Positions 1 through 18,346 of a stretch of 18,346 bases of DNA are shown here, in pieces. The DNA comes from a virus (lineage: Duplodnaviria; Heunggongvirae; Uroviricota; Caudoviricetes): positions 1-18,346 of the IMG/VR virus record IMGVR_UViG_2531839178_000019; one strand, 5' to 3'. The notes below the pieces were generated by a model, which was not told where the DNA came from, ran no database searches, and saw only the letters and a list, made by a program, of their open reading frames with translations. Position 1 is the stretch's first letter, and every line of letters begins with the position of its first letter. A program made the translations under genes and the position numbers.

Positions 1-378
1 TTACTCAACGTCAAACGCCCGAATTGAAGCCAAATCATCCAGACCGCTCAGCTCCTCTTTCATTTCACGCTGACGGCGATAAATCTCGTCATTGCGCTCA
101 ACCTGTGCCTGAGCCATTGCTGCCGCCAGTTCTTCCAGTTCCGGCATCGACAGTTTCACCTGCTGATTATCCGCATCACTCCACACCATATGTGTTTGTG
201 CCGCGACAGATTTTGCCAGCATGACCACCGGGGACAGGCGGCCCAGTGAGTCGGGGCCAGCATTCCAGATACGACCGTTCCATTCAAACGTGAACGGCTT
301 CGCCTCCTGTTCTGTGCGCCATGCTTCAATTTCCTGACGCCTGGCCTCTCTGGCCGCTTCCAGCATTTCTGGTGTCAC
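1..378 (-). CDS. Putative tail fiber assembly (chaperone)-like protein, C-terminal reading frame; the probable N-terminal segment lies upstream (about 503-563) in another frame
   Basis: ORF ends with TAA at 1-3. It sits directly downstream of the side tail fiber gene, where tfa lies in lambda. No Shine-Dalgarno precedes the in-frame GTG (376-378) or ATG (364-366), whereas the neighbouring frame has GAGGAA-N6-GTG at 561-563. The two frames meet at a 7-nt homopolymer at 496-502. Confidence 0.45.
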   Translation of the reverse strand: MTPEMLEAAREARRQEIEAWRTEQEAKPFTFEWNGRIWNAGPDSLGRLSPVVMLAKSVAAQTHMVWSDADNQQVKLSMPELEELAAAMAQAQVERNDEIYRRQREMKEELSGLDDLASIRAFDVE

Positions 379-573
379 AGTGAATGGGGCTATCTCACCC
401 CATTTGCCGCTTTGCAGTTCCTGCCAGATTTGCTGCCCCGTCGGAGCGACATCATCAGCGGTGGCTGTGTAGGGGACTGCCTGGTCCCTGTCGTCAAAAA
501 AACGTCACAGTCTACTGCGCCACTTTCGGTATAACGGGGATTAATGATTTTTTTAATTTCCACGGTGCATTCC

Positions 574-1989
574 TCACGATGTGCGAATAAAAAGCCCGGG
601 CATTGCGCCAGAGACATGTGCATCCGGCACCCCGGACAGGGCGCAATATGACCCCGGTAATGAATGCTCTGAACATCCCGTAATGAAAAATTGTGGGGAT
701 GCTATATACGTTCCGGTGGGAGTACTGGGCACTGAAATCCCCACCGGTCCCAGTCGTGAGCCTCTGTATGACTGCCCCCTGACAAGTCTGATGACTTTAT
801 CACCGTCAGCTTCTCCCTGGTACGCAGCAATAATCAGCCCGCCAATGTCAGGGTCTCCCCATCTGTTGCGGACAGAGCTCGCCACGATTCTGTAAATAAT
901 ATCTTCTGTGGTTATATTTATTTTCACCCAGCCAGTCAGTCTGGATATGGGCCAGTAGCAGTAGCGGGTGTGATAAATGGGGCCGTTAATGCCGTAAAAA
1001 GTAAGGGATTTGGCTCTGTACCTCGGTTCTGTTGTCTCAGGGCGTGCATCAGTCCACCGGATGCTGAGCACCCCTTCAAACCGTGTGTCGGGTATGATGA
1101 TGTCGTAGGGGCCAGCAACGGAATATTCACCTGGCAGCGCATTCCTTACCCAGGCCAGGAAATCACTCTTAGTGTCAAAACGGATAACATCTTCAGGCAG
1201 AAAAGCACGCCCAAAGCCGAATGCGCCGGGTATCGCCAGACGGCCTTTTGTCCGGTCGTAAATGTCGCTCTGTGCTTCCATCGTGGCCGCACTTTTCAGC
1301 CCCAGATTATCCCGGGACTTCTGTTGTGCCTTTTCGCCTGCTGCTGCGATTTCTGACAGATGGTTAGCCATTTTCAGAGTGCCGGTCAGCGCAGCATCAA
1401 TGTCATTTTTGGCCTGTTCTGCTGCGCGGGCATAACCTGCGGCATCCTGTGCGCTCTGTCCGGCTGCGGCTGCATTTGCTCCTGTGCTTGTCACATCTTC
1501 CGCAGTGGCCTTTCTGTCCTCAGCTGTGACGGTTGCATCCTGTCGGGCTTTCTCCGCAAAACGTTGTGCATCATCACGGGCCGTTGCGGCTGCCGCCACA
1601 TCCTGCGCCGTCTGCTGTGCGTTTCCGGCTGCAGCCCCGGCACTCTGCTGCGCCTGCGCCACCATTTCCTCAAAGCGCTTCATCACCTCCGGACGTAAAT
1701 CACCATCCTTTGGTGCATTCAGAAACGCGTTCAGTGTCCCCGGTGCATCAGTCGGTGCCACATCAATATCCCCGACACGGGTTGGCTGCCAGCCGTTACA
1801 GTGAAGCGCAACCTCGTAATACCCCGGCTCAGCCTCAATCACATAAGCACCGTTATTGTCCGTCACGCAAGTGGCAACAACGTGTGCCACAACGGTCGGA
1901 CTGGTTCTTCTGGCCCGCAGTTCAATCGCACAATTTACGACAGGTTTACCCGCCCCATCTTTCAGTACACCTGAAATCTTTACTGCCAT
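574..1989 (-). CDS. Side tail fiber protein (Stf-like): conserved N-terminal domain, Ala/Gln-rich coiled-coil stalk, divergent C-terminal globular domain
   Basis: 471-aa ORF starting at ATG 1987-1989 (MAVKISGVLKDG...), preceded by GGGGTGA. The first ~100 aa match the N-terminal domain recalled for lambdoid Stf/StfR proteins. The track ORF start at 2031 is an upstream in-frame extension without an RBS. Confidence 0.8.
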   Translation of the reverse strand: MAVKISGVLKDGAGKPVVNCAIELRARRTSPTVVAHVVATCVTDNNGAYVIEAEPGYYEVALHCNGWQPTRVGDIDVAPTDAPGTLNAFLNAPKDGDLRPEVMKRFEEMVAQAQQSAGAAAGNAQQTAQDVAAAATARDDAQRFAEKARQDATVTAEDRKATAEDVTSTGANAAAAGQSAQDAAGYARAAEQAKNDIDAALTGTLKMANHLSEIAAAGEKAQQKSRDNLGLKSAATMEAQSDIYDRTKGRLAIPGAFGFGRAFLPEDVIRFDTKSDFLAWVRNALPGEYSVAGPYDIIIPDTRFEGVLSIRWTDARPETTEPRYRAKSLTFYGINGPIYHTRYCYWPISRLTGWVKINITTEDIIYRIVASSVRNRWGDPDIGGLIIAAYQGEADGDKVIRLVRGQSYRGSRLGPVGISVPSTPTGTYIASPQFFITGCSEHSLPGSYCALSGVPDAHVSGAMPGLFIRTS

Positions 1990-2000
1990 ATTCACCCCAC

Positions 2001-2026
2001 AAAAAGCCCGCCTGAACCAGCGGGCT
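2001..2026 (-). terminator. Rho-independent terminator downstream of lom (minus-strand RNA GCCCGC-loop-GCGGGC followed by UUUUU)
   Basis: Inverted repeat gcccgcc (2006-2012) / gcgggc (2020-2025) with an A-run at 2001-2005 on the plus strand, giving a U-tract on the minus-strand transcript. Confidence 0.6.
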
Positions 2027-2052
2027 GTCATAACACTGTGTTACCTGGCTAA

Positions 2053-2652
2053 TCAGAACTTATAACCGACACCCACGATGAAACCGTCAGTGCGCCAGTC
2101 GCCACTGCCGGAACCTTCATAAGCAAGGTCAATGGCCACGGATTCGGTCGGGTTAAACTGCACGCCAGCCCCCCACGCCAGAGACGTGTTGCTGTGGCGG
2201 TTGTCATCACTCCCGGTCAGCACATCGTGCGTTTTCCCCTTGTTGTCAGTTACGCGGAGATAATCCCCGGAGAAGGTCGACACACGGCTGTAAGCCACGC
2301 CCGCCATCGCATACGCGCTGAACCATTCATTCACGCGCACAGACGGCCCCGCCATCACGCTGAACCAGCGGTTACGCACGGAATCCTCATGCCAGCGGGT
2401 ATCGCTGTAATGCGTTTTTTGCTCATCTTCAGCGTTGGCATAGCTGAATGACGTCACCAGCCCCAGCGTGTCCGTAAACTCATAACGGTATTTCACGTTA
2501 ATGCCCTTCAGGTCATCGCTGCCTGGCATATCAGTATGGGGCTGAAGATACCCGGCGCTCAGCGTGGACTGATGTTCAGACGCCCATGCAGGCGCACCGG
2601 ATACAGCCAGACAGATGGCTGCGGACAAAATGGCTGCACAAACTTTACGCAT
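2053..2652 (-). CDS. lom: Lom family outer membrane protein (Ail/PagC/Lom beta-barrel)
   Basis: 199-aa ORF with a signal peptide (MRKVCAAILSAAICLAVSGAPAWA) and a C-terminus (YEGSGSGDWRTDGFIVGVGYKF) matching lambda Lom as recalled. It lies immediately after J, as in lambda. RBS GAGAGG upstream of ATG 2650-2652. Confidence 0.92.
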   Translation of the reverse strand: MRKVCAAILSAAICLAVSGAPAWASEHQSTLSAGYLQPHTDMPGSDDLKGINVKYRYEFTDTLGLVTSFSYANAEDEQKTHYSDTRWHEDSVRNRWFSVMAGPSVRVNEWFSAYAMAGVAYSRVSTFSGDYLRVTDNKGKTHDVLTGSDDNRHSNTSLAWGAGVQFNPTESVAIDLAYEGSGSGDWRTDGFIVGVGYKF

Positions 2653-2674
2653 AATTACCTCTCGCTTTTCTGCA

Positions 2675-2700
2675 ATAAAAAAGGCACCATTTCTGGTGCC
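2675..2700 (-). terminator. Rho-independent terminator between J and lom (minus-strand RNA GGCACC-AGAAAU-GGUGCC followed by UUUUUUAUU)
   Basis: Perfect 6-bp inverted repeat ggcacc (2683-2688) / ggtgcc (2695-2700) with an A-rich run at 2675-2682 on the plus strand. Confidence 0.65.
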
Positions 2701-2719
2701 CGTATCCGGGTTATAAAAT

Positions 2720-5700
2720 TCAGCTAATCGTGATGCCTGCAGTGGCTTTCTTCATCACAACAACCAGCAAATCGCTGATACTTGCTGTGGGATACCAGCC
2801 ATTTACCAGCCATGCCGATACAGAAAACTCCAGCGTCATGTGACCGTGACCGGCAGGCATATCAATAACACCCGTATATATCAGCGTATTATCCAGGGTC
2901 GTTCGGTTATAAATTTCGGCACCGTTTTTCTTCACTATCAGGCGGCATGACGAATAAATATTGTTATTCTTCCGCTCATGTTTAGCACCGCGAAACGCCA
3001 CCGCGGGAATAACAATTTGCCGATCAAACGGCTGATCGTCATAAACCCTGACGGTAATGGTCCCTGATGGCCACCTCTCCGGTGCCCGGGAGTCCCGTGG
3101 GAAAGGTTTGCCCACTGTTTTAACGAGATCGCCTTCAATCTGGTTCGCGGACAATTTTCCCAGAACCCGACAGTTCTTATTAATCGTGACGTTGTTGAGC
3201 GTCCCGGAGTTCGCGTTCACGTTACCGCTGATATCGGCATTTTTCGCCGTCAGCCGTCCGCCAGGTGTCAGGGAAAATGCCGGAGGATTACCGCCGCTGG
3301 TAATGGTCGGAGCCGTCAGGCGTTTCAGGAACACGTCGTTCATGAATATCTGATCGCCCTGACCAACAAACATCGGCTTTGTGTTGCCATTCGCAGGATT
3401 AATCATCGCAATCCTGTCTGCCGCCAGCAGCACCTGACTCTGCATTCCTGCTGGCGTATTCTCAATACCGGCACCGATACCCGCAATATAAAGGCGTCCG
3501 TCCTTCATCTGTTGCAGCTTCACAGCCCACATGCTGTTCAGGTTATTATTTGTATCAACCTGAACTTTCTGTATCTGCTGGATTGCAGCACTCTGATTTT
3601 CCAGTTTTTTATTGACGGTTTGCGTGATTTCATTGCTGACATTCGTAATGGACGTCCTGATTTCAGTCAGGTCCGGCGCAAGCTGACCGTTATCAATCTG
3701 CGTCCACAACTCCTTGCCGAGATGCGTTTTATTGATCAACCCTTTATAAAAACTCAGATAACCTTCCGCATCATCGCTCGCCCGACCGACGGCCTCCACA
3801 AATGCCGATTTGCCAACGGTGTTCACACTGCGAACGTAAAAATAATAATCATGGCCCGGCCTGATATTGATACTGGCGGCTATCCAGTACAGCGCCGTGC
3901 CAAGATAGCGGGCGCTGGTTTCAACCTGCCTGATATCCGAAATCCGCTTTTCCGAAAACCAGAACTCAAACTGCACCGTCGGGTCATATACAGCCAGTTT
4001 CGGGACCGCCGTTATCTGAAAATACCCCGGTATCAGTTCAATAGTGACAGGCGCTGCCGGTGCCGCAATCCGGAACGATACCGACGCCGGATCGCCCTGC
4101 TGCCCCCGGGCATTTACCGCCCGGACTGTCAGACTGTAATTCCCCAGCGCCAGCTGCCTGAAGCGGTATGTGGTTTCCGTCGTCCTGGCTGTGCTGACCA
4201 GCCGCTCACTGCCGTCGTCCGCTGCCACGGTCAGGCGAAGCAGGAAGCTCACACCCTTCACCACCTTCGGCGTGTCCCATCGCGCCAGCACCTGATATTC
4301 CCCGCTGTCTGCGGTGACTTCGGCGGTCAGATGCTGCACCGCTGGCGGCGTGACACCATTCACCGTGCCGCGCCGGTCACCGTCAAAGTGTGCCCCGTTA
4401 TCCACGATGGCCTCTTTTTCCGGCACATGCTGCACGGCGGTGATGGCATACGTGCCGTCGTCGTTCTCACGGATACTCACGCAGCGGAACAGGCGCTGGC
4501 GCAGCGTCGGCAGCTTCAGCCCCCACACGCTGTATTCTGCAACGCCGTCAGGAACCCGGCTCACTTTCACCTTCACGCCGTCGGTGACGGACTGAACCTC
4601 CACGCTGACCGGATTGCCATTTCCGTCAACCAGGCTTATCAGCGTGGTACCGGAGGACGGCAGCGTGATTTCACGGTCGAGCGTCAGCGTCCGGGTCTGG
4701 CTGTTCACCGCCAGTACGCGACCACCAGTGCTGATACCGGCATAATCATCATCGCAGATTTCAATGACATCACCCGGTACATGGCGAAGCCCTTCTGCGC
4801 CCACGCTGAAGTCCACGGTCTGCGTTTCCAGCAGTTCCGTTTTAATCAGCCACAGCCCGGCGCGGTGCGCCTGTCCCCGGCTGGTACAGCCAAAGGCATC
4901 CATCTTCGTGACGTTACGACCGTAACGGACAATGGCCTGCGTGTCCTCCACAAGCTCTGTCGCCGTCTCATGACCGTTGTCCGGATCAATCCAGTTCACC
5001 TCAACGACATTATGGCGGTCCTTCAGGGCGCTGAAGCTGTAGCGGAACGGCGCGCCATCATCCGGCATCACCACATTACTGCGGTTATAGGTCCACACTT
5101 TATCCGACGGTCGGTCCTGCACGAACGTCAGCGTCTGCCCGTTCCATACCGGCATACAGCGCATCGCCGAGCAGAAATCACTGAGAACATCCCACGCCTT
5201 ACGCTGTGTGGTCAGGTAAGCGTTACAGGTGATGCGCGGCTCCGTGCCGCCAAATCCGTCCGGCACTGACTGGTCGCAGTACTGGCCGATGACATACAGC
5301 GCCCATTTGTCCACATCTGCCGCACCAAGACGTTTCCCCATGCCGTAGCGCGGATGAGTGAGCATGTCCCACAGACACCAGGCCATGTTGTTGCTGTATG
5401 CTGGCTTAAGCGTTCCGTCCCAGATACCGCTGTATTGCCGCGTCTGCGGGTTATAGTTCGACGGCACCTGCAGAATGCGCCCGCGAAGATGATAATTGCG
5501 ACTCACCTGCTGGTTACCGAACTGCTCTGAATCCACCTGCACGCCGACCAGCGCCGTGTTCGGGTAGCACTGTTTCACATCGATGATTTCGGTGTACGAC
5601 GACCAGAGCGTTTTGTTCTGCAGCTGGTCTGTGGTGCTGTCCGGTGTCATCCTGCGCATCCGGATATTAAACGGGCGCGGCGGCAGGTTACCCACCACCA

Positions 5701-6199
5701 CCGAGGCCAGATACTGCGAAGTGGTTTTGCCCTTAATGGTGATGTCTTTTTCCGTCACCCAGCCACCGTTACGCTGTATCTGAACCAGCAGGCGGACTTC
5801 CGACGGATTCCGGTCCCCCTTTGAGGTGGTTTCCACCAGTGCCTGCACACCGAAGGTCAGGCGCAGACGATCAATGTTTGCCGACGTGATGGTCCTGGTG
5901 ATCGGCGTGTCGTATTTCACTTCCGTACCCAGCACAGTCTCTGAGCCGGAAGATTCAAACCCCTCCGGCGGTGTCTGCTCCTGCTCGCCGGCGCGGAACA
6001 CCACCGTAACACCGGAAAAGTTTGTCTTCCCCTCGCTGTCCAGGACCGGCGTACCGTTCAGCAGCACGCTTTTTAATCCATCCACCGGACCGTCAACCGG
6101 CCCTTCGCTGATGGCATCAATCACACTCAGCAACTGCGTGGATTTCAGGTTGTCCTTCGCTTCGCGCGGGGTATGCCCCTTACTGCTGCCTTTACCCAT
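2720..6199 (-). CDS. J: Tail tip / host specificity protein J (central tail fiber)
   Basis: 1159-aa ORF. N-terminus [34 protein letters not shown]... and most of the first ~950 aa match lambda J as recalled; the C-terminal ~200 aa diverge. RBS GAGG upstream of ATG 6197-6199. Confidence 0.95.
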
Positions 6200-8245: not shown

Positions 8246-8574
8246 CAGTTCACCACCTGTTCAAAATCGGCCGTTACAGTCACCCATAACGCCCCCACGC
8301 TTGCCGACCATTTACGACAAACCACCCTGATCAGTTTCCAGTCATAAGGTGGCGTCCACTGAAATGCGCGGACGCCACCGTGCCGTTCCAGAAAGGCTTT
8401 TAAAGATGGGTGTTCACCTTTACGAACACGTATCGTCACGCTGTAAGTCGACAACTGGTTATTCAGTCCCGCCGCACGACGCTGTTCATAACCATCGCCC
8501 AGCTTCACTGTCACCACTTTCGGCTCTGATACCACATTCATATCCGGGCGCACTTTCCAGTGAAACGTCTCCAT
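8245..8574 (-). CDS. M: Minor tail protein M
   Basis: 109-aa ORF matching lambda M in length and sequence (…GDGY.QR…FEQVVN). Its ATG shares one base with the H stop codon (TAATG). Confidence 0.95.
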   Translation of the reverse strand: METFHWKVRPDMNVVSEPKVVTVKLGDGYEQRRAAGLNNQLSTYSVTIRVRKGEHPSLKAFLERHGGVRAFQWTPPYDWKLIRVVCRKWSASVGALWVTVTADFEQVVN

Positions 8575-11500
8575 TACCGGTATGCTCCACTTAACCGGCC
8601 ACCATCACGGGCCTGCTGTTGCATAAAGTCCGCGGCCGCTTTTTTCCCGAGGTCATAAACCACCTTCAGGGCAGCCGGACCTATCTGCCCGTTCGTGCCG
8701 TCGTTATTGATCTCAATGTTGTACTGCGGGGCAAACATCACCATGCCTGAACCACCAGTATCCGCCACAACCCCCAGCTTACCATCAGCACCGCGACGCA
8801 GTGGCAGAATGGCTTCAGGTCCCGCTTCCCCCATCACACCCGCGCCTTTTGCAAAAGCAAAAAACGTCGGACGGTTAACCACCGTGCCACTGTAGCGACT
8901 CAAATCAGCAGACTGGTAAACACCGCCATCAGCATTAGTCGTGAAGCCGAATAAAGAACCGACGCCCTTTACCGCCTGCATCATGGCCATCTGTGCCATA
9001 ATTCTGGCCATATCTGACAACAGGGAAGAGGTGAAGGATTTAAAATTCAGCTTACCGGTGGTACAGAATGTCGCCAGTGCATTACCGGCACTGCTGAATG
9101 CCACTGTAAACATCTGTTCTGCCGTTCCCGCCGCATTATCCGCATCCGCCGTAAAATTCTGAAACGCCCGCATGGCACCGTTTTTCCAGTCGCCCTGCGC
9201 CACTTCCAGTTCCTGCCAGTAGCGTTTGTTTTCATTCAGTTGTCGCTTCAGGCTCCCCTTCAGCACCTCCTCAGCCCTCCGGTAGTCCTCCGTCCCGTAA
9301 GTGCCTTTCTGGCGACTGTCATTCTCAAGCTGTTGCAACTGTTGCCGGTATTCCTGCCGGATGCGCAACTGTGCCTGGTAGCGCTGCCGCTGCTTATCCC
9401 CCATACCTGCAGTGGCAATATCCAGATTGTGCTGCTCACGCAGTGCACGTTCTTTGTCTGCCAGCTGGCTGGTCAGCTGAACCGTTTTTTTCTCAGGTCG
9501 TTAAGCGCTGTCTGTTTCTGCAGCTCCTGCTGTTTCACATCCAGCAGCGTCAGCGCCTGAATCAGCTCATTCTTACGGGCCAGCACACTCTTTTCATCTG
9601 CCGTCAGCTTTTTCCCGTCCAGGTCGCTGATGCGCTGCTGCAGGGCCAGAAGCTGTTTATGCGCTTCAGTCATCCTTTCAGTGGCAATGCCTGCTGACTG
9701 TCTGGCAGCAGCAATCTGCCCTTCCACCTGTGCCTGCTGCTGACTGTACTGCAGCAATAACCGGGTGGCCTCATCATTACGGGTTGCCCGTGTATTTTTC
9801 TTAATGGCTTTTTCGTAACGTTCATTTTCACGCTGTATCGCCGCATCCCTGACAGCCTGGTCGGCGTACTGCATGGCATTAATACGCGCAATTTCCCGCT
9901 GATGTCGTGCAGCTTCCGTTTCATTCATCCGGTTCAGCGCGGCATTTTCAGCATTCCGGCGTTTCTGTTGCTCCTGGTAATTCCGTTCTGCCTGCGCTTT
10001 TGCATCCTGCAAATCCTTCCGGCGTTTTTTCTCCTGAAGATCGTTAAGACGCTGCTGATCGTACTCCACCTGTGTGGAGGCGTTTGTCCACGGATATTTT
10101 TTCGCGCGCTGAATTTTTTCCTGTAACGCATCAATCTGCGCATCCAGCGAGTCTTCACGACCAATATTCATGGCCGCATCCCAGAACTGCTTCCACCAGT
10201 CAGACAAGGTTTGCAGCGTACTACCCAGCGCATTGAGATTATTATCAATATCAGATGTGCGTTTACCGGTTTCCTCTGCCAGCGCAGACATGGCGATCCG
10301 GGCCGCATCACTGGACCGCCCCTGCTCCCCAAGGACGCGTATCTGCTCAAGCTGAGTGGCAGTCAAAAAATGCAGCGCATTGTCCAGCGCCTTCGCGGCA
10401 TTTACAGGATCATCCTTCAGCCGCTTAAACTGATTTATGGTATCGCTGACCGACTGGCCAACCGATCGCTCCATCTGTGCGGCAGCTTTCGCCACCATAC
10501 CAATATCGTTTCCATGAAATGCCCCACTGCCCACCACCTGTGCCAGCGCACCGGCTGCCGCATGTTGCGTGATACCATTCCCGGATATGGCCCGGCTGAG
10601 TTTCCACAACTGCCCGACAGTGACACCGGCATAATGTCCCGTCAGCGCCAGCTGACGGTTAAATTCCTCGCCCTCCTTCCGGCCGTCATGCCAGGCTTTA
10701 CCCAGACCCAGGACCGCCGCGACAAGTCCGCCAATAACGCCGCCAGTCATCATGCCTTTCGGCGACATCAGTGCGCCTGTCCATCCGGCACGGTTAGCCA
10801 GCGTTATCCCGGATCCCCTCAGCGCACCAAAATTGCCGCGCGCCATCTGACTGATTAACACCCCCAGCTCCCGCCGGGCTGCCGCACTTTTCAGCCCCAG
10901 CGAATGTGTGGCTTTTCCTGCCCGCTCCATTTTGCGGATATACACTTCTGCAGCACTGCTTACCCCCAGCTGAGCCGCCCTGGCGCGAAGCAACTCAGAA
11001 GACGACAGATTCTGGCGGGTTGCCTGCTCTTTAAGCTGGCGGATAAACGCCGCTTTCTGCCGGGTGGCCTGTTCCTCTGCCTGCGTCAGGGCACGGGTTT
11101 TCGCCGTGATCTCCGAAATCAGCGCCAGATAATCCTGCTGACCAACCCCGCCACTGTTTCTGGCCTGTCGGATCTGCTGCTGAATACGCTGTAATTCCTG
11201 AAGCCCCGCACCGGCCTGTTTCACACTGTCAATCTGGCGATAAAAGGCGGCAGCCGCTTTATCCTGCGCCTCCGCCAGTGCCCTGGCCTGCGCCTGTTCC
11301 TCGCGCATTTTCTGATTCAGGGCATCCACGCGCAGACGGGTTTGTTCCACCTCACGGGCCATGCGTTCATGAGCCCGTGCATTCTTCTCCACCGTCTGCG
11401 CATGGGCTGATGCTGCTGTTGCAGCCGAAGAAGCCGCCTGCATTGTCTGCCGGGCCGCCTGAGTCTGACGCTCCATAAAACGCTGCATACGGGCAGAAGA

Positions 11501-11614
11501 CCGTTCTGCATCGCTGGCTGCACCATTCAGAAGGTTTTTGATACGGGGAATTTCATTTTTAAACTCTGCCGCATCAATCCCCAAATCAATGACCAGGTTG
11601 GCTATCTGGTCCAT
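8574..11614 (-). pseudogene. H: Tail tape measure protein H, reading frame interrupted at an A7 tract (coding strand; plus-strand T7 at 9485-9491)
   Basis: N-terminal ORF from ATG 11612-11614 (MDQIANLVIDLGIDAAEF..., RBS GGAGGTG) stops at 9473-9475. The C-terminal 276-aa ORF (8574-9404) ends ...NNDGTNGQIGPAALKVVYD..., matching the lambda H C-terminus as recalled, and its frame is open upstream back to 9500. The two frames meet exactly at the A7 run. Confidence 0.85.
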
Positions 11615-11915
11615 AACGCACACCTCCGGAAATACCTTCCCCAAGATGCATCAGTTCTTCGTCCGTTCGCTCCGGTATCCCGTTCTCTTCCGGTAAAAGG
11701 CTGAAATCAGCCACCGCAGCATCGCTGCTGCCGGACACCATTCTCACGATCAATGCCTTCAGCGAGGCAAACTGCGCATCCATCCACACATCACTGAAGC
11801 TCTGCATCCGGAAATAATCGCCCCACTCACCAAGCTCAGTGGCCGACATATCCGACAGCATCCGCCGCCAGTCTGCCCGCCGGAACTCCCGGGCAAGCCG
11901 CATGACAAACTGCAT
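11586..11915 (-). CDS. T: Tail assembly protein T, the -1 frame extension expressed as the G-T fusion
   Basis: 109-aa ORF in the -1 frame relative to G; its frame is open upstream to 11948 and overlaps the G 3' end. G-T-H gene order as in lambda. Confidence 0.8.
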   Translation of the reverse strand: MQFVMRLAREFRRADWRRMLSDMSATELGEWGDYFRMQSFSDVWMDAQFASLKALIVRMVSGSSDAAVADFSLLPEENGIPERTDEELMHLGEGISGGVRYGPDSQPGH

Positions 11916-14734: not shown

Positions 14735-16535
14735 TTACGCCGTACATTTCACCAGGCCGCGGTGATCAACTGGCGCAACACCGGCGTCAATACGCACTTT
14801 CGTTGTCACGCCATCCACACTGAAGCCCTCCATCTGATCAATATATGGCGTATCCACACCGTTGAGATAAGCCACTTCAATCGTATCGGAGCCTTTGGAC
14901 GCAGCCAGGTAGAAGGTGGTCTGGCTGTTATCATCAAGACGAGGCTCTGCAATAACGGTCGCAAAATCTTTCACCGGGTTAATAATACCGGCGTTAATGT
15001 CAGCCCCCTTGACACTTGAGGAGCGAATGACCTGGTTAGCAACAGACTCCATCGCCGTCGGTACCAGTACGAACGCAGGACGAATATTCAGATGACGCTC
15101 CCCCTCTTTCTGAACACGCATCAACTGGCGGGCTTTATCCAGCGATGCCACGTCCATTGCAGCGCTCTCCAGTACGTTTGCATGTTTCGCTTTATCGAAC
15201 AGACTTACATTATCTGTGGAGATTTTCGGGTTAGACGTCAGAATGGCATAAACCAGATCGGCAATAGTGGATTTCGCCGCACGGCCCAGTTTCATCGGGA
15301 CATCGGTCAGCATATTCAGATCATCGTTGATAATGGCCTGACGGGTGATACTGAACAGTTCACCATAGGTCGCCAGTGCAATCGTGGCCTGTTTATCTCC
15401 GGTAGTAACGTATTTATATTCCGCCCCTTCACGCACCTGACGCAGAGCACTGAAGCCCCCCATACCCACACGATGGGCAATTTTAAAATCAGACAGCTGA
15501 CCTTTCCGCGTCCACTGTTCATAGGTTTCAGGGGCATCTTCCCAGCCCTGCAGAATGGCTTTGTTCGCAACATCCAGCAGAATATTACCGAAGTCAGACG
15601 TACTGTGTGTGAACGCCGCACCGACCATCTGCATCGGGTTATAACCGGAAACCCCAATACCCCGTTCAGTCAGTGACATACGGGCATATTCACGCAGGGT
15701 CATCCCGTTGTAGACATTATCACGTTCAGTTTTTTCAAACCCGGCACGCGCCATCAGCGCCTGGCGGATCCCGTCCCCCACAAAATTACCGTTTCCGGCA
15801 TAAATATGGGCCGGGGTATTTTTATTTGATGGTGAAAATTCCTTACCCATTTCGTTAAGTAATTTCTCACGGGCCTGCTCAAGCGAGCACTCCGGCTCGG
15901 AAAGACAACTGGCCTGCAATGTCTGATAACGCCCGCCAAACATACCAAACAGTTCATTAATACCACTCACACGTGCTTTTTGCTCTGCCAGTACCTGCGC
16001 ACGGATACTGCTTTCATCTGCGGAAGGTGCATTTGTGGTGGTCACGGTTGTGGCAACCTGAGCCGTAGTCTGCTCCTGTGTCTGAGATGCAGTATTTTTG
16101 TTTTCAGGTTCACGCGTTGCACTGTTGCGTGGCGGAGTAATCATGTTTCGAATGGATTCCGGCATCTTTTTAAATTCCTCTGTACGTTTTGACTGAATAC
16201 ATGCCATTGCCTTAACGGCTGGCGTCACCTGATCAGCAAATCCATGTGCCAGACATTCGGCACCGGACATCCAGGTCTCATCCGCCAGCATGGCAGCAAC
16301 TTCATCGGTGGTTTTCCCGGTTTTCTGTGCATAAGCGGGTAACAGAACCGCCTCAACTTTATCGAGCAGGTCGGCATAGGTGCGCATGTCCTCCGCATCA
16401 CCGCCCGTAAAGCCAAATGGTTTATGAATCATCATGAAGGTGTTTTCCGGCATAATGACCGGGTTTCCCACCATCGCAATGACCGACGCCATTGATGCCG
16501 CCACACCGTCAACATAAACGGTAATGGACGCACCA
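14735..16535 (-). CDS. Prohead protease (ClpP/S49-like, C-terminal part) - scaffold linker - major capsid protein fusion; 5' end truncated by IS600
   Basis: Long ORF with the peptidase motif ...VYVDGVAASMASVIAMVG... near its 5' end, a Thr/Gln-rich linker and a capsid-like C-terminal domain. The reading frame runs upstream into the IS600 terminal sequence, so the track start at 16561 is a GTG inside the IS. Confidence 0.6.
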
Positions 16536-16862
16536 TGAGGTAGCCTGAGTTTAACGGACACTCCTTCCTGAAATAGAATGGCATCAGAAGGAGCTAATAA
16601 TGAGCAGAAAAACCCAACGTTACTCTAAAGAGTTCAAAGCCGAAGCTGTCAGAACGGTTCTTGAAAATCAACTTTCGATCAGTGAAGGCGCTTCCCGATT
16701 ATCCCTTCCTGAAGGCACTTTAGGACAATGGGTTGCCGCCGCCAGAAAAGGGCTCGGTACTCCTGGTTCCCGCACGGTGGCTGAACTGGAATCTGAAATT
16801 CTGCAACTGCGTAAGGCGTTAAATGAAGCTCGCCTTGAGCGAGATATATTAAAAAAAGCAAC
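16536..16862 (+). mobile_element. IS600-like (IS3 family) element, left ~327 bp only, interrupted by IS30
   Basis: Begins TGAGGTAGCCTGAG... about 64 bp before the orfA ATG (16600-16602), a layout typical of IS3-family left ends. The orfA product MSRKTQRYSKEFKAEAVRTVLENQLSISEGASRLSLPEGTLGQWV... matches IS600 OrfA as recalled. The left boundary is approximate. Confidence 0.7.
16600..16862 (+). pseudogene. IS600 orfA, 5' fragment (first ~88 codons), truncated by the IS30 insertion
   Basis: The helix-turn-helix OrfA sequence stops making sense after ...LERDILKKAT at the IS30 terminus (16863); the track ORF to 16950 reads through into the IS30 inverted repeat. Confidence 0.8.
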
Positions 16863-18083
16863 TGTAGATTCAATCTGTCAATGCAACACCCCTTTCAATT
16901 ATCTCTTTCGGTGTTTTGAACTTCAGTGTCTTTCTCGGTCTGTTGTTTAGCTGAGCAGCAACCAGATCTAGTTCATGTTGAGTATATTGGGCAAGACATG
17001 TCTTTTTAGGAAAGTACTGCCGAATTAGCCCATTTGTGTTCTCATTTGTTCCCCGCTGCCAAGGACTCTGAGGATCGCAGAAGTAAACTTTAACGCCGGT
17101 GCTGACAGTAAATTCTAGATGTCTGGCCAGTTCCATTCCTCTGTCCCATGTCAGCGATTTTCTGAGTTCTGACGGTAAACTCAGGAATTTGTCGGTAAGA
17201 GCCTGATTTACTGAGACAGTAATCTTTGCCCCTGAGTCTAAGGATGATCGTATAACGTGATTTTCGGTCTACAAGTGTGGCTATATGAGAGTTTTTGTAC
17301 CTGAGACTAAATCGCCCTCCCAATGCCCCAGAGAGCGTCTGTTATCGATATTTCGGGAACGTTCGTGAATTGGTGTTCCGTTCACTATGTTAATCGTACC
17401 TCTTTCGCCTTTGCGGGTATGACGCCTGCCATGGCGAAGGCTATGCGACCGTCGCAGATGCTGTATATTCAGGTGGTGTAGCGCTTCACGGCTACGAAAG
17501 TACAGCGTTTTATAAATTGTCTCAGGTGATATTCGCAGCGTTTTTTGACGTGGTTTTGTTCGCCTTAACCATCCTGATATTTGCTCTGGAGACCATTTCA
17601 TCTCCAGCTTTTCCAGAACAAGCTTTCGCAATGGTAAATTTTGATCCAGTAAGCACGGTTTTGGCCTTTTCGCCATTCTGTTGGCTCGGTTATTAGCATC
17701 AACAGCTTTGTAATAGCGTCTGCCCCGATTACGCTGAACTTCACGTGAGATCGTCGAAGGACTGCGATTCAGCGCAGTAGCTATCGCACGAATGCTCATT
17801 TTGGCTGACAAACCAGCTCGTATCTCCTCGCGCTCAGACAGTGTCAGGTGAGCTACAGCCCGCTTACGCTCATGGGGTTTTATGCCGCCAGTATCCCTTA
17901 ACATAGTGAAGATCGTTCCGGGTTTTGAACCCAGGATATTCGCTATTTCACTGAAGCCTGTTCCGTTCTTCCATAGTTCAAAAACAGAGGCTTTTTCCTC
18001 TGCTGTAAATGTTCGTCTCATTCAAAAAACCTCCGCGACCCCATGTTTTCACATAACTGTTGCGTTGACCAATTGAATCTACA
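16863..18083 (-). mobile_element. IS30, complete length (1221 bp) with imperfect ~25-bp terminal inverted repeats
   Basis: Termini TGTAGATTCAATCTGTCAATGCAAC (16863-16887) and reverse complement of 18059-18083, TGTAGATTCAATTGGTCAACGCAAC. Encodes an IS30-family DDE transposase on the minus strand. Confidence 0.9.
16870..18021 (-). pseudogene. insI: IS30 transposase, split into three ORFs by two compensating 1-bp indels
   Basis: ORFs 17281-18021 (MRRTFTAEEKASVFELWKNGTGF..., HTH), 17090-17323 (...NSHIATLVDRKSRYTIILRLRGKD...) and 16870-17136 (MELARHLEF...DPQSPWQRGTNENTNGLIRQYFPK...) together read as one IS30 transposase as recalled. Frame changes occur near the T5 run at 17292-17296 and near 17220. 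Confidence 0.8.
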
Positions 18084-18346
18084 GTTGCTTTTTTAATATA
18101 TCTCGCTCAAGGCGAGCTTCATTTAACGCCTTACGCAGTTGCAGAATTTCAGATTCCAGTTCAGCCACCGTGCGGGAGCCAGGGGTACCGAGCCCTTTTT
18201 CTGGCGGCGGTAACCCATTGTCCTAAAGTGCCTTCAGGAAGGGATAATCGGGAAGCGCCTTCACTGATCGAAAGTTGATTTTCAAGAACCGTTCTGACAG
18301 CTTCGGCTTTGAACTCTTTAGAGTAACGTTGGGTTTTTCTGCTCAT
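18084..18346 (-). mobile_element. Second IS600-like fragment (orfA 5' part) in inverted orientation, continuing beyond the window; orfA frameshifted
   Basis: Reverse complement of 18084-18346 is identical to 16600-16862 except for 3 substitutions and one extra A (A5 versus A4), which shifts the orfA frame after ...WVTAARK. The orfA ATG is at 18344-18346. Confidence 0.8.

Follow-up and report, generated by a model that had tools for sequence, protein, structure and literature searches.

Gene J and its surroundings

The analysed stretch of DNA, referred to here as the window, comprises 18,346 nucleotides of the IMG/VR virus record IMGVR_UViG_2531839178_000019. Gene J, which encodes the tip attachment protein or central tail fibre, is located on the minus strand (2720..6199, with the stop codon at 2720-2722) and forms an intact single ORF of 1159 amino acids. 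Long antisense ORFs within J (e.g. 3512-5269 on the plus strand) were taken as mechanical artefacts of the GC-rich coding region. Directly downstream of J and on the same strand lies lom (2053..2652), which encodes an Ail/Lom outer-membrane protein (Pfam Ail_Lom, E 2e-128), in a gene order that matches lambda, 434 and vB_EcoS-640R1 (640R1). The minus strand also carries an stf-like side tail fibre gene (574..2031; Pfam phage_tail_N, E 2e-48), which is a second, independent host-range determinant. The tail operon runs in the order tape measure, M, L, K, I, J, lom and stf, as is also annotated for the FDAARGOS_943 prophage (99% identical), and lambda shares the order I-J-lom-stf. In the FDAARGOS_943 prophage, J is annotated as "phage attachment tail tip protein J" and the stf-like gene as "prophage tail fiber N-terminal domain-containing protein".

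The host element is an E. coli/Shigella prophage that is defective or decayed and forms no particles on its own. A 1-nt deletion near position 9485 splits the tape-measure gene (a homopolymer frameshift, possibly a sequencing error), an IS600/IS30 nest cuts off the protease/capsid fusion gene at about position 16537, and the DUF4376 gene is scrambled in its 5' part. A pattern across the capsid/IS600 junction had no match among species-representative genomes. Because the prophage is defective, the current function of J is uncertain; the protein could act here only by tail complementation or by recombination of its gene into another lambdoid phage.

Mosaic architecture of J

Six Pfam families were matched in J (FNIII-A_GpJ, Phage-tail_3, Ig_J, Ig_J_second, Phage_Tail_Tip and Ig_GpJ_C; E 1e-30 to 1e-43), all of them above the curated cut-offs, with Ig_GpJ_C (PF12421) covering residues 1030-1159 (E 3e-36, 124.8 bits vs. 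a cut-off of 26.2). The domain names used below were taken from the structure paper on lambda gpJ (PMC11101478). In a global alignment the protein is colinear with lambda J (1132 amino acids), with 947 of 1160 alignment columns identical and indels confined to residues 811-880 plus one position in the receptor-binding domain (RBD).

The identity is unevenly distributed over four segments, all encoded on the minus strand. Residues 1-810 (3770..6199) contain the hub domains and two FNIII/Ig domains and are of the lambda/21/434 type, with 95.7% identity to lambda, 95.6% to phage 21 and 96.2% to 434, as opposed to just 74.8% to J of the O157 prophage PPompW. Residues 811-932 (3404..3769) represent a swapped block of phage-21/O157 type, which takes in the upper end of the beta-prism as well as the alpha-helical shaft; its identity is 89-93% to phage 21, PPompW and 640R1 but 38% to lambda and 434, and it exceeds the block of lambda by 28 amino acids. 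The lower beta-prism (residues 933-1005, 3185..3403) is a conserved island common to all J classes, with 85-96% identity across lambda, 21, 434, PPompW and 640R1, and its G992 aligns with G964 of lambda. The remaining residues 1006-1159 (2723..3184) form the Ig-like RBD of the 1A2/O157-PPompW/640R1 class, which is about 40-41% identical to lambda J.

The initial annotation had described J as matching lambda over the first ~950 residues and as diverging over the last ~200. The first part is wrong as it stands, since it holds for residues 1-810 (~96%) but overlooks the swapped block 811-932 (38%, 28 extra amino acids); the divergence is real for the last ~154 residues (1006-1159, nt 2723-3184, ~40%) but was extended too far, as residues 934-1005 (nt 3185-3400) are 88% identical. 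The pairwise alignment with lambda J that had been suggested confirms that the C-terminus, i.e. residues 1006-1159 with about 40% identity, is not essentially identical. The peptide strings quoted from it are present in the ORF of the window, and WPSGT, PFDRQIV and DMPAG are indeed common with lambda, whereas "HPFDRQIV" is the form found in lambda and the window reads QPFDRQIV.

At the DNA level the transition is a sharp breakpoint, with the identity decreasing from 86% at J nt 2911-3000 to 56% at nt 3001-3090, and this drop in C-terminal identity far exceeds chance variation. In a megablast search, lambda-like phages matched J nt 1-3100 alone and full-length matches were restricted to a few phages. 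Decay or a frameshift as the source of the C-terminal divergence was rejected, since the ORF has no interruption and other genomes conserve the divergent sequence at 92-100%. The second swapped block (811-932), together with the conserved residues 933-1005 and the divergent RBD, shows that J of the window is a recombinational mosaic of at least three sources. These are a lambda/21/434-type body, a phage-21/O157-type shaft and an RBD as found in PPompW, long-tailed Stx2a phages and vB_EcoS-640R1, with shaft and RBD joined via the universally conserved island 933-1005, which is the likely recombination joint.

Class and fold of the receptor-binding domain

From the NVTI motif to the C-terminus, the identity of the window is highest to 640R1 (94.3%) and PPompW (92.4%), followed by phage 21 (64%), A8 (61%), 434 (42%) and lambda (41%). 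In tblastn, the last 136 amino acids were 90-94% identical to 640R1, PPompW and Stx2a phages, against 60% for phage 21 and 40% for lambda and 434. Compared with the RBD of PPompW, there are 12 substitutions in 167 amino acids at equal length and without indels; at a threshold of about 90% gap-free identity, its 92.4% places the domain in the 1A2/PPompW class. By close sequence similarity it falls outside the LamB-binding RBD of lambda (lambda J residues ~980-1132, 41% identity), while it shares the fold of this domain, since the AF2 model has the Ig-like beta-sandwich of PF12421. The broad protein search gave only J fragments of less than 300 amino acids, and several frameshifted pseudogene pieces were excluded before modelling. 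The core of the model has a pLDDT of 75-96 and matches 8xck and 8xcj with E values of about 1e-18 to 1e-19; its best structural matches were 9wca, 8xck, 9wcb (A8 with OmpC of EDL933) and 8xcj (lambda with LamB). Similarly, phmmer returned 9wca, designated "A8 gpJ 713" (E 2e-97), and lambda J (8xcj/8xck). Class membership and fold are, like the mosaic anatomy of J, observations of the present analysis.

Receptor of the window J

The receptor of this class can be approached through gpJ-1A2, an engineered chimera described by Brödel et al. (Nature 2024, PMC11338833). In a lamB/ompC double mutant, 1A2 delivers DNA solely when OmpC of EDL933 is supplied, with delivery to 98% of the cells as opposed to about 2% with OmpC of MG1655; in the same study 74 OmpC variants were identified and 23 tested (PMC11338833). 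Its sequence was taken from the machine-converted PDF of the Supplementary Information (PMC11338833), in which 10 positions were unreadable. In a frameshift-tolerant alignment, the 3' end of 1A2 is 96% identical to PPompW and about 91% identical to the window, and the mismatches to PPompW downstream of the fusion point all adjoin machine-reading errors. The natural part of gpJ-1A2 thus appears to be essentially the PPompW RBD. Because this RBD delivers via EDL933 OmpC without LamB, OmpC is the most likely receptor of the window RBD as judged from sequence, and we regard it as probable, with reasonable confidence, that the window carries an intact mosaic J with an RBD of the 1A2/PPompW class that most likely binds the porin OmpC and not LamB. 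The earlier suggestion of a receptor other than K-12 LamB is therefore supported by the 92.4% RBD identity to PPompW, which matches the OmpC-dependent 1A2, and this is better evidence than C-terminal divergence alone. Divergence from lambda by itself predicts no new receptor, as phage 21, whose RBD is 47% identical to that of lambda, natively uses LamB (PMC11336670).

The example of phage 21 also leads to the main alternative, that the RBD still recognises LamB, possibly in a non-K-12 allele, despite its divergence. Phage 21 has the next closest natural RBD class with a known receptor (64%) and is a native LamB user (PMC11336670), the RBDs of lambda (LamB) and A8 (OmpC) have one fold, and very few substitutions can switch specificity; however, the far closer 1A2/PPompW RBD (92%) needs OmpC and functions when lamB is deleted, and the identity to the lambda RBD is just 41%, so that we consider LamB an unlikely receptor. 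Slightly less likely still is recognition of several porins, or of a different porin or outer-membrane protein (e.g. OmpF). The evolution of OmpF or OmpC use in both phage 21 and lambda by a few J mutations would speak for it, as would the hairpin 1076-1080 and residue 1134, which differ from the OmpC-validated 1A2, but hairpin variation is common within the class and is better explained by the tracking of many OmpC alleles, and our literature search found no non-OmpC receptor reported for the 1A2/PPompW class. The least probable explanation is that J is a functionless relic of a dead prophage, its divergence having no present biological meaning. The split tape measure, the truncated protease/capsid gene and the scrambled DUF4376 gene fit such decay, of which the first could be a sequencing error; against it, J is an uninterrupted ORF of 1159 codons, its RBD recurs at 100% identity in the FDAARGOS_943 prophage, which is more complete and whose J differs from that of the window at 5 residues, and the divergence, found alike in thousands of prophages, separates this class from lambda and does not reflect decay.

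Even with OmpC as the preferred receptor, receptor choice in the gpJ family is labile. The RBDs of A8 (OmpC) and phage 21 (LamB) are 82% identical, and the single substitution I1025T lets phage 21 use OmpC; an identity of 92% with 12 substitutions is therefore no guarantee of the same receptor or the same range of OmpC alleles. For PhiR46_1, PhiR55_1 and vB_EcoS-640R1, no receptor data were found in the literature search: the Nature 2026 SNIPE paper, which includes the PhiR phages, deals with ManYZ dependence and not with outer-membrane receptors, and a receptor-prediction preprint (10.64898/2026.04.02.716166) covers GpJ of Drexlerviridae and explicitly excluded lambda J from its alignment. 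The long-tailed EHEC phage phi330, a proven user of K-12 OmpC (PMC12502783), was set aside as an anchor, as its J numbering implies another length.

In lambda, cryo-EM has shown J as a trimer at the tail tip that triggers DNA ejection when the receptor is bound (PMC11101478), and by homology the J of the window would be expected to do the same. In the virion, three Ig-like RBDs at the fibre tip would enter a porin trimer of the outer membrane with their bottom loops. On binding, the RBDs would move apart, the beta-prism would twist, the helical shaft would flip and the tail tip would open to let the DNA out. These steps are modelled on the structures of lambda with LamB and of A8 with OmpC, following the mechanism described in PMC11101478, and for the window J the triggering mechanism is inferred from these homologues.

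The variable hairpin

The substitutions relative to PPompW are concentrated in residues 1076-1080 (RKNNN; 2960..2974, minus strand), which form the tip of a beta-hairpin, are hypervariable within the RBD class and may represent a receptor-contact loop. In the AF2 model the turn is flanked by strands 1072-1076 and 1079-1091, and the DNA identity to PPompW decreases to 79% at this site. All five residues differ between the window and 1A2, which like PPompW has KEHTD, while 640R1 has RENND and other members of the class RNHTD, REHTD or REHND; in phage 21 and A8 the site contains a 5-amino-acid insertion. The remaining substitutions vs. PPompW are K1008E, P1032A, R1070S, K1090R, T1101A, T1109S and G1134N, of which G1134 is a putative loop residue that is N in 1A2. 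The RKNNN allele is rare, with 13 records at an identity of at least 95% from 5426 complete E. coli genomes, and also occurs in Shigella flexneri. The pattern of RBD and hairpin was matched in S. flexneri SFBU1023 and E. coli ECMA0423, neither of which exceeds about 99% identity to the window.

It may be speculated that the 12 substitutions vs. 1A2, above all those of the hairpin, shift the accepted OmpC alleles. A more specific and rather doubtful idea is that the hairpin and residue 1134 form a hypervariable patch which tracks host OmpC alleles, with RKNNN tuned to Shigella/EIEC-like OmpC. If true, exchanging five residues would redirect lambda-based delivery particles to Shigella/EIEC-like pathogens.

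Frequency and significance

Of 5426 complete E. coli genomes, 3350 contain the RBD class of the window, which is the most frequent type in prophages of E. coli. A megablast search with the RBD DNA of lambda matched only 98 genomes, all with at least 99% identity and none of them of the window's class. The LamB-binding RBD of lambda is thus the rare exception and being "unlike lambda" is the norm and no signal, which calls for caution in annotation, as divergence from lambda J is to be expected in E. coli prophages. That lambdoid phages exchange the C-terminus of J as a module is textbook knowledge. The swapped receptor domain is real but ordinary and already known, since it belongs to the commonest RBD type of E. 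coli prophages and a 92%-identical RBD has already been tied to OmpC; the class is annotated in thousands of genomes and used in engineered particles, and a close relative has been solved with OmpC. Its practical value is that of a natural variant of an OmpC-targeting RBD, and hairpin variants could serve as a source for broadening or restricting the set of OmpC alleles recognised by DNA-delivery vectors built on lambda.

Comparison with known systems

The closest full-length relatives are vB_EcoS-640R1 (ON470612), PhiR55_1 and PhiR46_1, with 100% gene coverage and 92.5-92.9% nucleotide identity. J of 640R1 has 95% protein identity overall and the same mosaic layout, with ten substitutions in the RBD region including the hairpin RENND. 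PPompW (LC567836) and the long-tailed Stx2a phages contain the natural counterpart of gpJ-1A2 and share the RBD class of the window; the J body of PPompW (residues 1-810) is ~75% identical to that of the window, which is of the lambda type (96%). In 1A2 the recombination joint is the same, lambda G964 being aligned to G992 of the window, and it is the only member of the class for which OmpC dependence has been demonstrated. A8 gpJ (PDB 9wca, closed; 9wcb, open with EDL933 OmpC) is an OmpC binder with the fold of the window RBD and its best match among solved structures by both structure and sequence. However, the A8 RBD is of a phage-21-like class, with a hairpin 5 amino acids longer and a first loop 4 amino acids shorter, and A8 accepts K-12 OmpC, which 1A2 does not. 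Phage 21 (OL657228) has a body and shaft of the window's type (residues 1-932, about 90-96% identical), and its DNA matches the window at 92% up to J nt 3100, but the RBD differs (64%), and the window has L at position 1025, where I1025T gives phage 21 the use of OmpC. Lambda J (NP_040600; PDB 8xcj/8xck) belongs to the same family, with the same domain order, RBD fold and I-J-lom-stf neighbourhood, and differs in its RBD (41%), in its shaft block (38% and 28 amino acids shorter) and in its receptor, LamB.

Anatomy and mosaic origin of the J protein

The tail-tip attachment protein J (gpJ), the central tail fibre, is encoded by a single uninterrupted ORF of 1159 codons (2720-6199, - strand), in which Pfam detects all six gpJ domains in order. 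The last of them, at residues 1030-1159, is Ig_GpJ_C ([quoted passage not shown]), which scores 124.8 bits against a cut-off of 26.2. When J is aligned globally to its lambda counterpart (1132 aa, taken from NC_001416), 947 of 1160 columns are identical. Calculated per 50 residues, the identity is 90-100% up to residue 800, 28-60% at residues ~801-950, again 94% at residues 951-1000 and 26-50% from residue 1001 to the C-terminus. The breakpoints in the DNA are sharp, with 92% identity at J nt 2371-2460 followed by 51% over the next 90 nt, and 86% at nt 2911-3000 followed by 56% at nt 3001-3090.

The segment names follow the domains defined in the structure of lambda gpJ (PMC11101478), and their identities were obtained from an alignment with five reference J proteins. 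The body (residues 1-810) is 95.7% identical to lambda, residues 811-932 (nt 3404-3769, - strand), which make up the alpha-helical shaft together with the top of the beta-prism, 37.7%, residues 933-1005, the lower prism, 87.7%, and residues 1006-1159 (nt 2723-3184, - strand), the junction and the Ig-like receptor-binding domain (RBD), 40.3%. The initial annotation described J as lambda-like throughout except for the last ~200 residues. The C-terminal divergence is confirmed, as are the motifs WPSGT, PFDRQIV and DMPAG common to both proteins in the alignment, but the divergent tail comprises ~154 residues, and the second swapped block at residues 811-932 had been missed.

The closest relative differs by segment. 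The body is nearest to lambda, 21 and 434 (96%) and farther from the O157 prophage PPompW (75%), the shaft is nearest to phage 21, PPompW and phage vB_EcoS-640R1 (640R1; 89-93%) and farther from lambda and 434 (38%), and the RBD is nearest to PPompW and 640R1 (92-94%) and farther from phage 21 (66%), 434 (42%) and lambda (40%). J is thus a lambdoid recombination mosaic of the classic kind. The conserved island at residues 933-1005, which contains G992, the counterpart of lambda G964 in the alignment, is likely the joint between shaft and RBD. The shaft block is of the phage-21/O157 type and 28 residues longer than that of lambda, which could alter the length of the fibre or the energetics with which the shaft flips to open the tail.

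Relatives and frequency of the receptor-binding domain

When phage genomes were searched with the J gene by megablast, the match was limited to nt 1-3100 in phage 21 as well as in numerous lambda-like phages of the gut, and full-length matches are confined to PhiR55_1, vB_EcoS-640R1, PhiR46_1 and prophage 500465-3. With tblastn, the last 136 residues show 90-94% identity to 640R1, O157 PPompW prophages and many long-tailed Stx2a phages, as opposed to ~60% to phage-21-type J and ~40% to lambda and 434. The 466-nt RBD region was also searched for in 5426 complete E. coli genomes, with a minimum coverage of 80% of its length. The RBD class of the window is present in 3350 of them, with best-place identities from 80% upward, while its own allele (at least 95%) occurs in only 13 records. 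The phage-21-type RBD is found at 90% identity or more in ~1086 records and the lambda RBD in just 98 genomes, always at 99% or more, the top-listed being K-12, B and DE3 laboratory strains. Since 3350 genomes stand against 98, the seemingly unusual C-terminus is the most frequent J RBD in E. coli prophages, and the lambda type is the outlier. An identical RBD (100%) lies in the prophage of genome FDAARGOS_943, where it is annotated as gpJ (WP_197939856.1), and that of Shigella flexneri SFBU1023 differs by two residues.

Structure of the receptor-binding domain

In a phmmer search against PDB sequences, "A8 gpJ 713" (9wca/9wcb, E 2e-97), an engineered gpJ chimera, ranks above lambda J (8xcj/8xck, E 7e-75). 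Residues 960-1159 were modelled with AF2 from 13 homologues, with a mean pLDDT of 70.9 overall and 75-96 in the RBD core. Because the best Foldseek matches of this model are A8 and lambda fibres, namely 9wca (closed A8 fibre), 8xck (closed lambda fibre), 9wcb (open A8 fibre solved in complex with EDL933 OmpC) and 8xcj (lambda with LamB), the modelled RBD is assigned the gpJ family fold.

A hairpin is formed by residues 1072-1076 and 1079-1091 of the model, and five substitutions cluster at its tip. Phage 21 and A8 have a hairpin 5 residues longer at this place. The tip (J 1076-1080, window 2960-2974) is hypervariable within the RBD class, with RKNNN, KEHTD, RENND, RNHTD, REHTD and REHND in members whose RBDs are otherwise 90-98% identical, and the DNA identity to PPompW falls to 79% in the 90 nt around it. 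This pattern is as expected of a receptor-contact or specificity loop, for which the hairpin is a candidate.

Probable receptor

Residue 964 of lambda J has served as the fusion point for C-terminal parts of natural prophage gpJ variants (Brödel et al., Nature 2024, PMC11338833). The chimeras A8 and 1A2 were active in a lamB deletion and needed OmpC; A8 accepted both the MG1655 and the EDL933 variant, whereas 1A2 accepted the latter only, with a delivery of ~98% with OmpC-EDL933 and ~2% when OmpC-MG1655 was supplied to cells deleted for lamB and ompC (source data, PMC11338833). Their DNA sequences came from the Supplementary Information, whose PDF text had been read by machine and contains scattered indels, and the 3' ends were compared by frameshift-tolerant protein-to-DNA alignment. 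In this machine-read form, 1A2 shares 96% identity with PPompW J across 218 residues, all mismatches downstream of the fusion point adjoining reading errors, and 91% with J of the window; A8 is of the phage-21-like type. With PPompW as a proxy for 1A2, the window shows twelve differences, five of them at the hairpin tip (R1076K, K1077E, N1078H, N1079T, N1080D) and seven elsewhere (K1008E, P1032A, R1070S, K1090R, T1101A, T1109S, G1134N).

Based on these homologues, OmpC is probably the main receptor. Caution is needed mainly because receptor choice is labile in the gpJ family, as A8 (OmpC) and phage 21 (LamB) share 82% RBD identity and a single substitution can add a receptor. Lambda uses LamB and 434 OmpC (PMC11101478), and phage 21, whose native receptor is LamB, gained OmpC use by the change I1025T (PMC11336670), a position occupied by L in the window. 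Phage 21 offers a parallel for LamB still being the receptor, which is nevertheless unlikely here. Recognition of another porin, or of several, is a little less probable, and a J that is a functionless relic is the least expected. All three are less well supported than OmpC, because the RBD is a 92% match to a functionally tested one.

With OmpC as the most likely trimeric porin, the three tip RBDs would insert their bottom loops into it. By analogy to lambda and LamB (PMC11101478), binding would splay the RBD bases, the prism would compact and twist, the helical shaft would flip, the FNIII strings would be freed and the tail tip would open.

Prophage context and decay

The window is 99% identical to prophages in FDAARGOS_943 and S. 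flexneri, and this copy is decayed. The tape-measure gene (within 8574-11644, - strand) has a 1-nt deletion in a T-run (~9485-9491), with T7 where the 99%-identical prophage of FDAARGOS_943 has T8. The 1013-aa protein is thereby divided into ORFs of 723 and 276 aa, so that the gene is a true pseudogene unless the homopolymer was misread in sequencing. An IS600 end cuts the fusion gene for the ClpP-like protease and major capsid protein (14735-16561) at ~16537, leaving 608 aa compared with 686 aa in FDAARGOS_943. Downstream of the side tail fibre gene (stf), the 5' ~40 codons of a DUF4376 gene are scrambled (379-624, - strand) by stops and frameshifts when compared with the complete 207-aa copy of FDAARGOS_943, and a 125-aa ORF (1-378) is all that is left. 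Because of these lesions, the phage is unable to make particles alone, although J could still matter via complementation or recombination.

The IS nest (16535-18346) consists of IS600, whose orfA (16600-16950) is broken by an IS30-like element with a frameshifted transposase (16870-18021, - strand), and an inverted IS600 end (18084-18346); such nests are typical of Shigella/EIEC genomes. In the closest genome, NZ_CP065615.1, the region directly past the tail-fibre end of the matching prophage (1176-2821) contains a SAM-methyltransferase gene and a frameshifted gene for an ipaH-type T3SS effector, and the lysis genes are flanked by IS600 copies. These features suggest that the prophage lineage has a Shigella/EIEC-like background.

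Comparison with known systems

The mosaicism, the RBD class, the OmpC specificity of this class and a related complex structure are already published or deposited, and the exact RBD allele is in RefSeq, so that nothing of substance is new here. The hypervariable hairpin may tune the range of OmpC alleles that is accepted.
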